From positions 215,151-279,150 of the forward strand of contig CAVTWJ010000014.1 of NCBI GenBank assembly GCA_963738405.1: a DNA stretch of 64,000 bases, written 5' to 3'. The position numbers are program-made. This DNA comes from a candidate division FCPU426 bacterium. Lineage in GTDB: Bacteria; Oederibacteriota; Muellerivitia; Muellerivitales; Muellerivitaceae. This document shows, piece after piece, positions 21,001 to 24,000 of the stretch; within the stretch, counting starts at the first letter, position 1; the number at the start of each line of letters is the position of its first letter.

Positions 21001-24000
21001 TCGAAAATCCCGGCAGATTATATAAAACCATTTCATTAGCTTCTTGATGCAACATAGTATTGCCATCTAATGATTCAAAAACATCATCAGTACCCCACAC
21101 CATATCTTTATCTATATTAATAATTTGAATCGGATTTTCTAAATCAACAATTCCTTGTTGCCTTTTTTTAAGGACAATCGCAAAACGTCCCTGTCCAAGA
21201 AATTTAGAAAATATCCACCCATTACTTAAAGTAATCTTTTTCATCTCAGGGATTTTATAGATGCCGTTAAACGAAACAGCCGCACTGCTCTCTGAAGGTC
21301 CTCTCACATTAAGGTAATTACCATTTTTGGATATTTCTAATCCATTTTCTAAAGAAGCTTGAAAGATAATCCTATTAGACTTTCCGTCATAAAGAATGTT
21401 ATCGGCTAACCAATAATTTCCAGAATCATCAGAACTCAAATTAGGATAATTCCCGTTTTTAACGTTTTTTTGAATTAGACTGTTTAATCTATTAAACTTC
21501 CACGGCTTAGAATTCTCACGCAACGGAAGAGATTTATCTCTTCGAAATTTATTGCAAATTTCCTCATCGATAGAAATTATGGTGGAGGACGGGATCTCTT
21601 CTATTGAAGAGGCTTTTATGTCTTCATCCTGTCCAAAAGTCGCGGAAGTAGGAATGGGCGTTTGAGAATAAACAGGTGTTATTAATAAGGAAATTAAACT
21701 AATAAGAGGGACGCAACCGGATAATTTTCTCAAGTTAAACACTTTTCATATTCTCCGTCACATTTAACTTACTGAGTAACTGTTTCCTTTTTCATCACAA
21801 ACGGAGAATCAGCAGTTCGTGTTAAAGATAAACAAATCATGATCAATATTTACATTATTCATTCTGACCTGCCCCAATTCTTTGTACCACTTCCTATCTC
21901 ACACCATAGGCCCAGTTTGTTGAACCCATTAGTGGAATAGGTTTCATCTTGGGTTCTAAAATCCAAGTTTCTGGTGCTGGTGGCAGTTGGCCCAACGAAC
22001 TGTGCGGAGAACAAAGGGGCCAAGCTGGACTTCCCCCGAAAAAATGGACACCTGAGATGAGTGTAGAATACAGCTTACGGGGGTGTCTGTCATGGCGCAT
22101 CGAATCAATAGGAAATATAGCCTTGAGTTTAAGCTGGAAGCGGTTCGACTCTCGAATGAGTCGGGTAAGCCAGTTACTCAAGTGGCCCGCGATCTGAATA
22201 TCAATCCCGCTTTTCTTTACCGTTGGCGTGATGAAATCCATAAAGAAGGTTCCAAAGCTTTTCCGGGAAAGCCTGGCCGGAGTGTCAAAAGCCCCGAAAA
22301 TGCTGAGATCATCCGTCTGCGCAAGGAAGTCAAACGGCTCACGGATGAGCGCGACATACTAAAAAAAACTCTAGTCTTCTTCGCGGCCGAAGAAGCCAAA
22401 AATTCGAATGCATCCGAGAACAACAAACCCAATACTCCATAACGATGTTGTGTCGTGTTCTTGGGGTCTCTCGTAGTGGCTATTACGCATGGTTGAATCG
22501 AGAACCGTCGAAGAGAGACAAAGAAAACATATTGGTTTTACAGGAAATTCGAGAAGTCTATTTGATATCGAGAAAGGCGTATGGATCCCCGAGAATTCAC
22601 GCGGGGCTGAAGAAAGAAGGTTTTGGTTGGGGGCGCAATCGAATCGCTAGATTGATGAAAATGGCTGGAATTCGGGCCTTGAGGCAGTACTACTACCGAC
22701 GTTGCACGTTGACGAATCATGGGAGGATAAGAACCAAGAACCTGGTGAAACAAAAGTTCGATATTAAGAAGCCCAATAGAATCTGGGCATCTGATATTAC
22801 CCAGTTTCGTACAGGGGCTGGTTGGTTGTACCTGGCGGTCGTGATGGATCTTTTTTCTCGGCGAATCATTGGTTGGTCAATGCAACCCCATCTGCGGGAG
22901 GAATTGGCCATCGATGCCTTGAAGATGGCGATTCAAGAAAGAGGTGATCAAACGCCGAAGATTCATCATTCGGATCAAGGCAGTCAGTATTCTTCGAGAG
23001 CTTTTATTAATGAACTGAAAGAGCATCGGATCCAAAGCTCGATGAACCAAAGGGGAAGTTGCTACGACAACGCGGTGGTCGAAAGCTTCTTCAAAACCTT
23101 GAAAGCAGAGTTGGTGAGAACCGTGCGGTTCAACACGAAGGAAGAGGCGAAAGCTAAGTTGTTTGAATATATAGAGATTTTTTACAACCGGAAGAGATTG
23201 CATTCCACCTTGGGCTACAAAAGTCCGGTGGAGTTTGAGGGAACAACTACACTAAACTAGATTGTCCACTAAATCGGGGGAAGTCCAAGCCTACATTTTA
23301 CACCTTAGAAGCCTCTTGGCGAATGTCCGGTCTTTGGCCGTGATCCGATAAAGAAGCAAGGTGCCTGGCCTACATTCAAAACTTTAGGTTTTATCCCCGC
23401 CCCTCAATTCGTGCACAAATGCCTTCATTGGCATTTGCATAACCAAACCTTACCCAATAACTTGCGGTTATTGGGTAGATACTCTCGAAACCTTACAAAC
23501 CTCCGGTCCCTTCAGGCCCTAGCGCACATCCACAATCACCGTCACGGGCACGGTGGAAACCACCTCCCCCTGGTAATGCAGGTCACTCTGGGTGATCAAC
23601 AACTCTTTTACGGAACTTTCACCCCAATGTTTTGTATGACATTGGGGTAGTCAAGACAAGTGCCGTAGCTGGTGGCTACGGCACAGCCAACTCCAACTTC
23701 GCCCTTTTCGGGTTGAAGACCCAAGTTCTGTTTCTGGGGCCCGCCATTCCCTTCACCCATTCGCCCGGGTCCACCACATACAGCGCGTGCTGGCCCGGCG
23801 GCAGGCTTTGAAGTTTCGAGAGCAATTCCTCGTTGCCCATGCGCGTGCCGGGGTTGGAATCCACGGACCAAATATGGTCGCCCGGCTTAAGACCCGCTTT
23901 CGCGATGGGGCTGTCATCCCAAGTGCCTGTTACTTCGCCTTCACTGCCTATCAAAAGGCCCTGGTACAGGCATGGCAAAGCGCCAATCGGCGCGTTTTTT

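Follow-up and report, generated by a model that had tools for sequence, protein, structure and literature searches.

How does the end of one protein module come to lie behind a gene that ends in another? The question is raised by a locus in a 64,000-nt stretch of DNA from a candidate division FCPU426 bacterium (the window; positions refer to it unless another contig is named). Here P0001, one of 14 paralogs, ends in a C-terminal module of type T1, and part of a module of the second type, T2, lies just beyond its stop codon. A preliminary description had proposed that C-terminal modules were swapped by recombination that displaced the old 3' end, as at polymorphic toxin loci. We therefore asked what the remnant is, how P0001 relates to its paralogs and which history accounts best for both. 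The features of the locus are given in Table 1.

Table 1. Features of the P0001 locus, in window coordinates
Feature	Position	Strand	Basis
P0001, 671-aa family gene (putative ParB-type HTH head, four hydrophobic segments, linker, T1)	23676..25691	-	ORF, homology to paralogs
21-bp phased repeat array, directly upstream of P0001	25787..25948		core TTCCATTGAAC on gene strand
T1 C-terminal module, 276 aa	23679..24506	-	AlphaFold model and Foldseek
Predicted PH-like domain of T1	about 24009-24449	-	predicted model
Predicted PDZ domain of T1 (last ~105 aa)	about 23679-23999	-	predicted model
HP1' hairpin, holds TAG stop of P0001	23660..23684	-	GTGCCGTAGC-CACCA-GCTACGGCAC
HP3 hairpin	23622..23647	-	CCCCAATG..CATTGGGG
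Second copy of CCGTA(A/G) gene end	23603..23616	-	GTTCCGTAAAAGAG
T2 remnant (last 44 codons of the predicted NTF2-like module and original TAA)	23468..23602	-	tblastn, blastn, frame reading
HP1 hairpin, holds original stop codon of the remnant	23451..23477	-	hairpin analysis
HP2 hairpin, completes 68-nt double-hairpin unit	23415..23438	-	GCAAATGCC-AATGAA-GGCATTTGT
IS3-family insertion sequence	22013..23308	+	HTH_Tnp_1 and rve, inverted ends
orfA of the IS3-family element	22083-22442	+	HTH_Tnp_1, 3.8e-16
orfB of the IS3-family element	22445-23260	+	rve, 4.7e-28

A gene family with freely combined modules

Alignment of the 14 paralogs showed two heads, two membrane blocks and two tails that combine freely, five of the eight possible combinations being seen. 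Both tail types occur in head groups A and B, as had been claimed earlier (A/T1, three genes; A/T2, three; B/T1, three; B/T2, five). The group-B head, present in eight of the 14, carries a ParB_N-like segment with a GxxR..AA motif; Pfam detected ParB_N in five of these eight at E 0.0017 or better, three of them above the curated cut-off, and HTH_ParB exceeded its cut-off in one paralog (26.2 bits vs 22.6). P0001 lacks the ParB_N domain and starts at the HTH part of the family alignment. Its head aligns with the HTH part of paralogs carrying ParB_N/HTH_ParB, and a Pfam search with P0001 itself returned no match. The hydrophobic segments span residues 237-261, 267-289, 287-306 and 308-334.

Both tails were analysed through predicted structures. 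The AlphaFold model of T1, built from alignment A4 (pLDDT 86.9, pTM 0.82), matched PH domains (SIN1, neurofibromin) and the PDZ domains of CtpA, CtpB and HtrA in Foldseek, the latter over 96-99 columns with an rmsd of 3.5-4.7 Å and 19-27% identity; the match to CtpA had 26% identity over 96 columns. T1 is thus predicted to consist of a PH-like and a PDZ domain, the PDZ assignment being made at the level of fold only, with Pfam silent. The model of T2 (pLDDT 93.4) matched the periplasmic domain of DotI (3wz4) with a TM-score of 0.84 and an rmsd of 2.1 Å, as well as CagV, TraM and PrgL, among 47 PDB chains at E <= 0.001. It describes an NTF2-like cone resembling the DotI/VirB8 periplasmic domain, again at the level of fold only, the sequence identity to the structural matches being 9-15% and Pfam giving no match. 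T2 proteins share a conserved C-terminus of the form ..V-x-x-P. No toxin domain was detected by Pfam in either T1 or T2.

Among 40 relatives searched with P0001, the family was found in 10, nine of them from the same taxonomic family. The best match outside the genome was 40% identical, and the ancestral state of the locus therefore cannot be read from the relatives. A search of a large protein database returned six proteins, five of them from this same genome. In a literature search on membrane-anchored ParB-like proteins, we found nothing relevant among the matches listed, and no description of the family.

The sequence downstream of P0001 is the end of a T2 module

We searched the 3.18-Mb genome by tblastn with the last 125 aa of the C4 paralog, a T2 gene, and recovered positions 238630-238770 of contig C14, which are 23480-23620 on the minus strand of the window (E 1.3e-15; 47 aa aligned, with 76.6% identity). 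By blastn, the match to the T2 3' end was 85.8% over 127 nt (E 5e-36). This confirmed that a remnant of a type-2 module lies downstream of a gene ending in type 1. Homology begins within T2, about 45 codons before the end of the module, and possibly extends up to 9 nt beyond the limit in Table 1, to 23611, giving a stretch of 23468-23611 or ~45 codons. In frame, the remnant reads ..LLITQSDLHYQGEVVSTVPVTVIVDVR*GLKGPEVCKVSRVSTQ*, with asterisks for stops. The final stop is the original TAA (minus strand, 23468-23470), and the internal TAG at 23519-23521 is the single break in the frame; this column holds Gln in three of the eight intact T2 genes, including the two closest (C4 and C5_2257), and is variable in the others. 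The remnant has no start codon and lies 64 nt 3' of the P0001 stop. It comprises no more than the last strands of the module, too little to fold by itself.

The remnant is closest, over 135 nt, to C4 (80% identity) and C5_2257 (76%), two T2 genes that share the head and membrane class of P0001; identity is 64% to C16 and 61-64% to the other five T2 genes. It groups within the T2 subclade of P0001's head class, a class that accounts for three of the eight T2 genes. Differences from C4 fall 9/5/13 on the three codon positions, too few to show relaxed selection. No match between the remnant and P0001 was found by blastn, and the two share nothing that could seed recombination. A DGR-like pair of template and variable repeats was also considered and dropped, as the partner of the remnant is another paralog and not the gene upstream; no search for a reverse transcriptase was made.

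P0001 is a mosaic of differently diverged parts

Evidence of recombination was sought in windowed synonymous divergence (dS) and in separate trees of the head and the membrane block. Between P0001 and C12, its closest paralog, dS falls from 1.69 in the head through 0.81 in the membrane block to 0.26-0.36 in T1; the corresponding values against C9 are 1.59, 1.18 and 0.46-0.49. Nucleotide identity along P0001 climbs from about 58% to 85-96%. The two trees conflict. In that of the membrane block, P0001, C12 and C9, all T1 genes, form a clade (support 98/98), and a grouping of P0001 with C4 can be rejected at p-AU 0.004. Among the heads, the row nearest P0001 in the tree is the T2 gene C4, and forcing P0001 with C12 and C9 costs 7.9 lnL; this tree is star-like, and the forced clade is not significantly rejected (p-AU 0.07). 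Taken together, the divergence and the trees indicate that P0001 is a mosaic gene whose 3' part has been exchanged.

These data do not establish a C4-like ancestor, because the head tree is star-like and P0001 and C12 have similar array motifs (TTCCATTGAAC and TTCCGTTGAAA), that of C4 (CTGTTAAAC) being unlike them. The remnant and C4 are about 86% identical in nucleotides, whereas the heads of P0001 and C4 are only about 65% identical, and the T2 tails have therefore evidently also been homogenised, which blurs their history. Outside the gene itself, no synteny of the C4 locus with the C14 locus was found. Three soil-metagenome contig sets from one study contained only short, low-depth contigs; one of them spans 23624-23778 and shows no differences there, but the junction of T1 and the remnant is crossed by none.

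Hairpin units and the junction

The remnant keeps the gene-end layout of intact T2 genes, in which HP1 holds the stop codon and is followed by HP2. On its other side HP1' and HP3 form one repeat unit, so that hairpin units flank the remnant on both sides, and no T1 gene other than P0001 has units of this kind. The HP1'-HP3 unit resembles that found after the T2 gene C23_10269 (blastn, 80% over 65 nt to C23 8134-8198), and the HP2-containing unit is 86-88% identical to units of which C5 250-690 holds six in tandem. A duplication of CCGTA(G/A) bounds the unit at the P0001 stop. The second copy, GTTCCGTAAAAGAG, is shared with the end of a T1 fragment on contig C9 (GTGCCGTAAAAGAG) and forms the junction of T1-derived sequence with the T2 remnant.

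Perfect HP1 hairpins occur 11 times in the genome, all of them at most 800 nt 3' of five family genes, and the first hairpin of a unit always overlaps a real or former stop codon. HP1 stems are of seven different kinds with one core in common, and compensatory changes are seen between copies. Searches with the repeat units (blastn-short) returned family loci only, except for one 21-nt match at C23 398304 (E 0.01), and no hairpin unit carrying coding sequence was found elsewhere in the genome. The 291-nt flank folded clearly better than shuffled sequences (z -3.97), owing to the hairpin units and not to the remnant; Rfam gave nothing at E <= 1 for 23250-23750. The 11 HP1 sites lie near family genes and are not dispersed genome-wide, which sets them apart from extragenic palindromes of the REP/BIME type. 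Integron attC sites, whose core consensus is RYYYAAC/GTTRRRY, were dropped by eye, the hairpins having stems of 25-27 nt and an unlike core.

About 100 nt beyond the hairpins of the remnant lies an insertion sequence whose terminal inverted ends of 41-42 nt agree with its placing in the IS3 family. It has an inverted twin at 19104-20399, the two arms of 1296 nt being 99% identical, and it cuts the remnant off from its original downstream context.

Other 3' fragments in the family

Four further 3' fragments were found in or near family genes, at C9 in this genome and at G021:C82, G001:C1 and G002:C74 in relatives. The genes that precede the first three differ from case to case (a BrnT/RHH pair, an Rce1-like gene and an ORF6N gene, respectively), and the fourth fragment abuts an ankyrin gene. 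Recombination ending inside or just after the tail module therefore recurs in this family. Three other clear fragments are of the same tail type as the gene upstream, and the C14 remnant is the only case in which the type switches.

The C9 fragment had been reported as a remnant at 27767-28051, 59% identical over 98 aa. It proved to be real and also shorter, a 54-codon ORF at 27893-28057. Over 154 nt this ORF matches the 3' end of the preceding gene at 95.5% identity, and at the protein level it is 91% identical to that gene and 85% to P0001. No nucleotide match was found upstream of 27892, and the reported figures thus mix ~55 good codons with a marginal stretch containing three stops. Both the C9 and the G021:C82 fragments are intact ORFs whose ATG stands exactly at the homology boundary. 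A third suggested fragment, at C22 43092-43776, proved not to be part of a C-terminal module: it matches only the low-complexity linker of C22_49033 (residues 581-649, 42.6% over 101 aa). Partial T1 matches at G021:C36, G021:C80 and G021:C39 run into contig ends and were left out of the count, and G001:C21 was rejected as an orphan tail, being a frameshifted whole gene.

Origin of the remnant

We consider it probable, at roughly 0.6, that the remnant is a non-functional scar of a 3' replacement through recombination between paralogs. The swap that had been proposed for this locus is the best-supported reading because dS along P0001 is mosaic, the trees of head and membrane block conflict, and the remnant falls in the T2 subclade of the same class and retains its own stop codon and hairpins. 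We infer that the gene at the P0001 locus formerly ended in T2 and then received a new 3' part by recombination with a paralog carrying T1; at least T1 would have been brought in, and probably also the membrane block, whether earlier or within a longer tract. On the left the exchange would end within homologous sequence, and on the right it would have been joined without homology, a few bases past the donor's stop codon, leaving behind ~45 terminal codons of the former T2 together with its stop codon and two hairpins. One-ended repair would fit such an outcome: after a break within T2, one end would have invaded a paralog, been extended past the end of T1 and finally been joined to the other side of the break. 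The addition of one 68-nt hairpin unit at the new stop codon, the TAG in the remnant and the arrival of the IS3-family element downstream would all be later events.

Tandem T1 and T2 genes could alternatively have been reduced by a deletion that took the array, head, membrane block and first 65 T2 codons of the downstream gene and spared its 3' end, no module ever having been swapped at the locus. Neighbouring family genes on the same strand are indeed seen in one relative (G024:C3, matches at 22677-23372 and 26139-27824), decaying copies are seen in another (G001:C21, split over three frames, and the frameshifted G001:C1), and the C12-like array motif would fit a P0001 that always carried T1. 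However, no tandem pair exists among the 14 paralogs of this genome, and the deletion would have had to start 5-8 nt past the T1 stop, once the later hairpin unit is discounted. As only three of the eight T2 genes share P0001's head class, the match in class would be roughly a 3-in-8 coincidence, and the mosaic dS and tree conflict point to an exchange in the 3' part of P0001 in any case. Duplication followed by decay, the alternative that the preliminary description had left standing, is thus weakened, and in this form we regard it as unlikely.

The hairpin units themselves might have delivered the T2 fragment, if a repeat block that had captured a T2 gene end was duplicated or transposed to this site; the fragment would then be uninformative about the former tail of P0001. 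Their position on both sides of the remnant, their tandem multiplication on C5, the CCGTA(G/A) duplication and their presence at P0001 alone among T1 genes are in keeping with such passive transport. It is nevertheless improbable, given that all perfect HP1 hairpins lie close behind family genes, that no unit with coding sequence was found elsewhere and that no transposase is associated with the units, although no search aimed at RAYT enzymes was made; a first hairpin always placed over a real or former stop codon is what gene-end sequence would be expected to show. We give hardly any credence to a functional remnant, kept for switching or regulation as a silent cassette or a structured 3' UTR element. 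The folding of the flank, the compensatory changes in the HP1 stems and the intact ORFs at C9 and G021:C82 would suit a function, but the C14 remnant lacks a start codon and is interrupted by a stop, has no sequence in common with P0001 at which recombination could begin and is without an Rfam match, and the good folding stems from the hairpin units.

Comparison with known systems

As a probable scar of 3' replacement, the remnant provides direct evidence on the evolution of a membrane-anchored ParB-like family. Heads, which are saturated in synonymous changes, and their private 21-bp arrays stay specific to each locus, and C-terminal domains appear to be exchanged among paralogs. This suggests a division of labour in which the head picks the DNA that is held and the tail picks the membrane coupling partner. 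The phased short-repeat array just upstream of P0001 is like the centromere-type binding arrays of ParB, Noc and KorB; unlike these proteins, P0001 has no ParB_N (GxxRxxA motif) and no Pfam match, and the proteins of this family are predicted to be embedded in the membrane and have swappable C-terminal domains. VirB8, DotI and TraM likewise place an NTF2-like domain after a membrane anchor, but they belong to type IV secretion systems, and no secretion genes were seen near this locus.

A duplicated gene 3' end flanking integrated DNA is known from E. coli, where a duplicate of the icd 3' end lies next to the e14 element. The C9, G021:C82 and G001:C1 cases are similar: one or two foreign genes stand behind a complete gene, and beyond them its 3' end recurs. 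They differ in that no integrase or att site was identified and in the small size of the inserts, about 0.8-1 kb; at C14 there is no cargo, and the tail is of a different type. A far-reaching analogy, to which we assign a very low probability, is that the 3' fragments and family-restricted hairpins are working parts of a cassette-exchange system of membrane-tethered ParB-like proteins. The head and the binding-site array would be locus-specific and the C-terminal domain (PDZ-type or VirB8-like) may be switched repeatedly, with short 3' gene ends and stop-codon hairpins as possible landing or donor sites, in a logic comparable to that of pilE/pilS and also to the reactivation of Rhs orphans.

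A likeness is also seen to orphan rhs-CT and cdiA-CT modules, which are described as 5'-truncated alternative C-termini downstream of a full gene, without translation signals, and are thought to be displaced former 3' ends, tails being exchanged between loci by recombination (PMC3967940). According to the same source, such Rhs orphans often retain conserved pre-tail sequence that is used to recombine back, and in Salmonella an rhs orphan and the main gene have 522 bp in common at 95% identity (PMC3967940). The C14 remnant, unlike that orphan, has no conserved pre-tail sequence, and it carries a stop codon and therefore cannot be fused back by homologous recombination. The family tails are not toxins and come in two types, not many; no immunity gene follows the remnant, only two hairpins and the IS3-family element, with no ORF. 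With toxin tail, immunity gene and retained upstream homology all missing, the polymorphic-toxin part of the earlier proposal holds as an analogy only. That a 3' end can be replaced and a scar left behind is already well known, and the locus thus adds a case and not a principle, a clear and fairly ordinary instance of domain shuffling in an unusual gene family.

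Modular architecture of the family

By tblastn and ORF extraction we identified 14 full paralogs in the studied genome, and their alignment showed three interchangeable parts per protein: a head, either short (group A) or with a ParB_N domain (group B), a membrane block with four hydrophobic segments (4TM) or one to two (1TM), and a C-terminal tail, T1 (∼276 aa) or T2 (∼125 aa). Five combinations are present: A/4TM/T1 (P0001, C12, C9), A/4TM/T2 (C4, C5_2257, C14_127023), B/4TM/T2 (C22, C19), B/1TM/T1 (C5_32877, C1, C23_148545) and B/1TM/T2 (C23_10269, C6, C16). Pfam ParB_N and HTH_ParB matches were found in group-B members; P0001 had no Pfam match. 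The family is narrow in distribution, with six matches in a large protein index (five from the studied genome) and matches in 10 of 40 relatives, 8-14 each in six of them and at best 40% identical. Further ParB-like genes in the genome encode two soluble proteins of 539 and 556 aa in which a ParB-like unit occurs twice, a protein of 362 aa and a canonical ParB of 288 aa.

Profile-based AlphaFold models predicted T2 to be an NTF2-like cone (pLDDT 93.4), superposing on periplasmic domains of DotI, CagV, TraM and VirB8 homologues (TM-score up to 0.84), and T1 to be a PH-like domain followed by a PDZ domain (pLDDT 86.9) that matches the PDZ of CtpA, CtpB and HtrA (identity up to 27%). The predicted folds are of a kind typical of periplasmic membrane-proximal domains; with four hydrophobic segments, T1 would share a side with the DNA-binding head. 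The carboxy-termini are alike, most T1 tails ending in ..L.VP (alignment consensus) and most T2 tails in ..V..P. A PDZ fold typically binds C-termini, and the PDZ domain in T1, together with these V-x-x-P or VP ends, suggests that T1-T2 contact is possible.

A T2 remnant downstream of P0001

Behind the P0001 TAG, one of the six translated frames reads ..LLITQSDLHYQGEVVSTVPVTVIVDVR*GLKGPEVCKVSRVSTQ*. With the last 125 aa of the C4 paralog as query, tblastn matched exactly the interval of the preliminary description, window 23480-23620, at 76.6% over 47 aa (E 1.3e-15), and blastn gave 85.8% over 127 nt (E 5e-36). The T2-like remnant that the preliminary description had placed behind this T1-ending gene is real and far beyond chance. 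It represents the final strands of the T2 cone and could not fold on its own.

In five intact T2 genes (C5_2257, C6, C23_10269, C16, C19) the stop codon lies within a hairpin, HP1 (core TA[AG]C-N5-G[CT]TA, stem 9-11 bp), followed by a second hairpin, HP2 or HP3. The remnant retains this layout exactly, with 44 final codons, a TAA in HP1, and HP2 after it. The 68-nt double-hairpin unit occurs in tandem (six copies at C5 250-690) and is confined to family gene 3' ends, the first stem of each array containing the gene's stop codon. The 3.18-Mb genome contains 11 perfect HP1 hairpins, each no more than 800 nt downstream of one of five family genes, while shuffled genomes gave 0-2; HP1 stems comprise seven sequences with one common core and compensatory changes. 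The repeat was absent at all three T2 genes read in relative G002. The unit at the P0001 stop (HP1'-HP3) looks like a later addition, because a CCGTA(G/A) repeat bounds it (compare the C9 T1 fragment end, GTGCCGTAAAAGAG), and the T1 end appears formerly to have abutted the remnant within ∼5-8 nt.

The former downstream context of the remnant is cut off by an IS3-family element, which has an inverted, 99% identical copy. The two flank a 440-aa ORF without a Pfam match, in an arrangement reminiscent of a composite transposon; C12 carries a third copy.

Family proteins carry, in linkers and heads, in-frame insertions of a 66-nt element (two hairpins, of the GCCGGTTCC..GGAACCGGC and TGGGCCTCG..CGAGGCCCA types; translation ..SP.E.AQPS.G.R..), three copies being in C6. 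The T1 genes C12, C9 and C1 have in common the terminal ..LLVQ* and a 65-nt 3' UTR, in which the stem of a hairpin varies by compensatory changes (GGCATTCGT/ACGAATGCC vs GTACTTCGT/ACGAAGTAC). Apart from this end, protein identity of the C1 T1 module to the others is only 46-48%, and the gene end looks like a separately exchanged end-cap.

Coordinates of features (those without a contig name count along the window, C14 215151-279150, of the 3.18-Mb, 23-contig assembly)
Feature	Coordinates	Strand	Remark
P0001 coding sequence	23676-25691	minus	671 aa
Array upstream of P0001	25787-25948		21-bp repeat
Other arrays	upstream of C12_80184, C9_24949, C4_46861, C5_2257, C14_127023		21-bp repeat
HP1'	23660-23684		HP1-type, holds P0001 TAG
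HP3	23622-23647		after P0001 stop
Junction	23603-23616		GTTCCGTAAAAGAG, between HP1'-HP3 unit and remnant
HP1 of remnant	23451-23477		contains remnant TAA
Remnant original TAA	23468-23470	minus	
HP2	23415-23438		after remnant
IS3-family element	22013-23308		∼100 nt beyond HP2
440-aa ORF	20420-21742	minus	
IS3-family inverted copy	19104-20399		
Putative composite transposon	19104-23308		
IS3-family third copy	C12, near 146680-147019		
Double-hairpin sites	23415-23684; C5 250-694; C6 8679-8852; C16 45747-45791; C19 25326-25413; C23 8022-8197		∼68-nt repeat
66-nt element sites	L003 (C9) 4231-4308 region; C6_10916 residues 482-560; C22, C16, C23 paralogs		
26-34-nt motif	C9 27859-27892, C9 28101-28135, C12 65018, C19 21999, C19 20853, C23 10520, C9 31136, C5 35365, C7 17288		
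Further ParB-like genes	C14 60064-61683, C22 114980-116650, C23 284129-285217, C14 33171-34037		

Evidence for a proposed replacement of the 3' part

Between P0001 and C12, nucleotide identity was ∼58% in the head, 73-84% in the membrane block and 85-96% in T1; dS (Nei-Gojobori) was 1.69, 0.81 and 0.26-0.36, and dN 0.48, 0.26 and 0.09-0.10, respectively. Selection on the protein alone cannot, on these estimates, explain the five-fold fall in dS. The membrane-block tree grouped P0001 with C12 and C9 (support 98/98) and rejected a P0001+C4 clade (p-AU 0.004). The head tree resolved nothing; C4 was the row nearest P0001, and constraining P0001+C12+C9 cost 7.9 log-likelihood units (p-AU 0.07). An alignment of 135 nt gave identities to the remnant of 80% for C4 and 76% for C5_2257, T2 genes that share the head and membrane class of P0001, and 61-64% for the remaining T2 genes. 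Taken together, the dS drop, identity gradient, trees and remnant similarity fit a group-A gene that once carried a T2 tail and had its 3' part overwritten by sequence from a paralog with T1. The proposed swap of C-terminal modules by recombination stands in substance, and we put the probability of in-situ replacement of the P0001 3' end at about 0.6.

Three observations caution against too neat a history. The remnant resembles C4 far more than the P0001 and C4 heads resemble each other, which indicates that T2 tails were themselves homogenised. In addition, a 21-bp phased repeat array lies within 500 nt upstream of all six group-A paralogs, with a core motif that differs from gene to gene, and the eight group-B paralogs showed no such array; the P0001 motif TTCCATTGAAC resembles that of C12 (TTCCGTTGAAA), not that of C4 (CTGTTAAAC). 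Head and array seem to diverge jointly while tails are exchanged. Differences by codon position (9/5/13 for remnant vs C4, 6/7/18 for C4 vs C5_2257) were too few to show neutrality.

Other 3' fragments

The C9 fragment is a 54-codon ORF in which 154 nt match, at 95.5% identity, the end of a gene lying 0.8 kb upstream; a BrnT-like ORF (31.2 bits, short of the Pfam cut-off of 34.5) and an RHH ORF separate the two. The last codons of the fragment, ..ELDVP*, match the P0001 end, and the C9 gene instead ends ..LLVQ*. Fragments in relatives were chosen from 15 T2 and 29 T1 matches in five genomes, leaving aside matches truncated at a contig end and one whole gene with a frameshift. G021:C82 has an intact 91-codon ORF, a whole PDZ domain, after an Rce1-like gene (87.5% over 255 nt to the upstream gene; pS 0.345, pN 0.103). 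In G001:C1 the T1 3' part is repeated as two blocks after an ORF6N gene (84.5% over 97 nt, 91% over 89 nt), and G002:C74 has 239 nt of a T2 3' end, 89% identical to G002:C31, adjoining an ankyrin-repeat gene at the contig end. A third candidate proposed on C22 matched the linker only.

The C9 (27892/27893) and G021:C82 (L027 2298) T1 fragments, independent and at different depths in the PDZ domain, are both intact and begin with an in-frame ATG exactly at the homology boundary; coincidence, or selection to express a short PDZ segment, might account for this. A 26-34-nt motif, AATTTTCTTTTTTCAGGCCTGACCCC(TTTTACAC), found at nine places, flanks the C9 fragment with two copies, the fragment ATG coming immediately after the left one. 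One copy lies ∼230 nt upstream of C23_10269, and the motif is partly similar to sequence at one end of the IS3-family element.

Proposed mechanism, alternatives and known systems

All fragment cases fit a repair with one-sided homology, a mechanism we infer: one side would use paralog homology, copying would reach past the end of the donor gene and might take in its neighbours, and the other side would be joined without homology, leaving the recipient's original 3' end behind. In three of the four cases in C9, G021, G001 and G002 the fragment is of the upstream gene's type with foreign genes between; the tail type switches at C14 only. There, a tandem T1 gene and T2 gene reduced by deletion would also leave a T2 end behind a T1 gene, and we consider this less likely. 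Passive carriage of the T2 fragment with the hairpin repeats, whose HP1 and HP2 accompany the remnant, seems quite improbable.

Parallels may be drawn with icd/e14 for the C9, G021:C82 and G001:C1 fragments and, in the improbable event that tails are switched as cassettes, with pilE/pilS. The comparison with polymorphic toxin loci made earlier did not carry over. Rhs orphans are displaced CT fragments linked to immunity genes, and often keep conserved upstream sequence through which they can recombine with the main gene again; in Salmonella this sequence spans 522 bp with 95% identity (PMC3967940). Unlike the orphans so described, the C14 remnant has neither an immunity-gene link nor such upstream homology, and by analogy it resembles the outcome of Rhs-orphan formation rather than the Rhs system.
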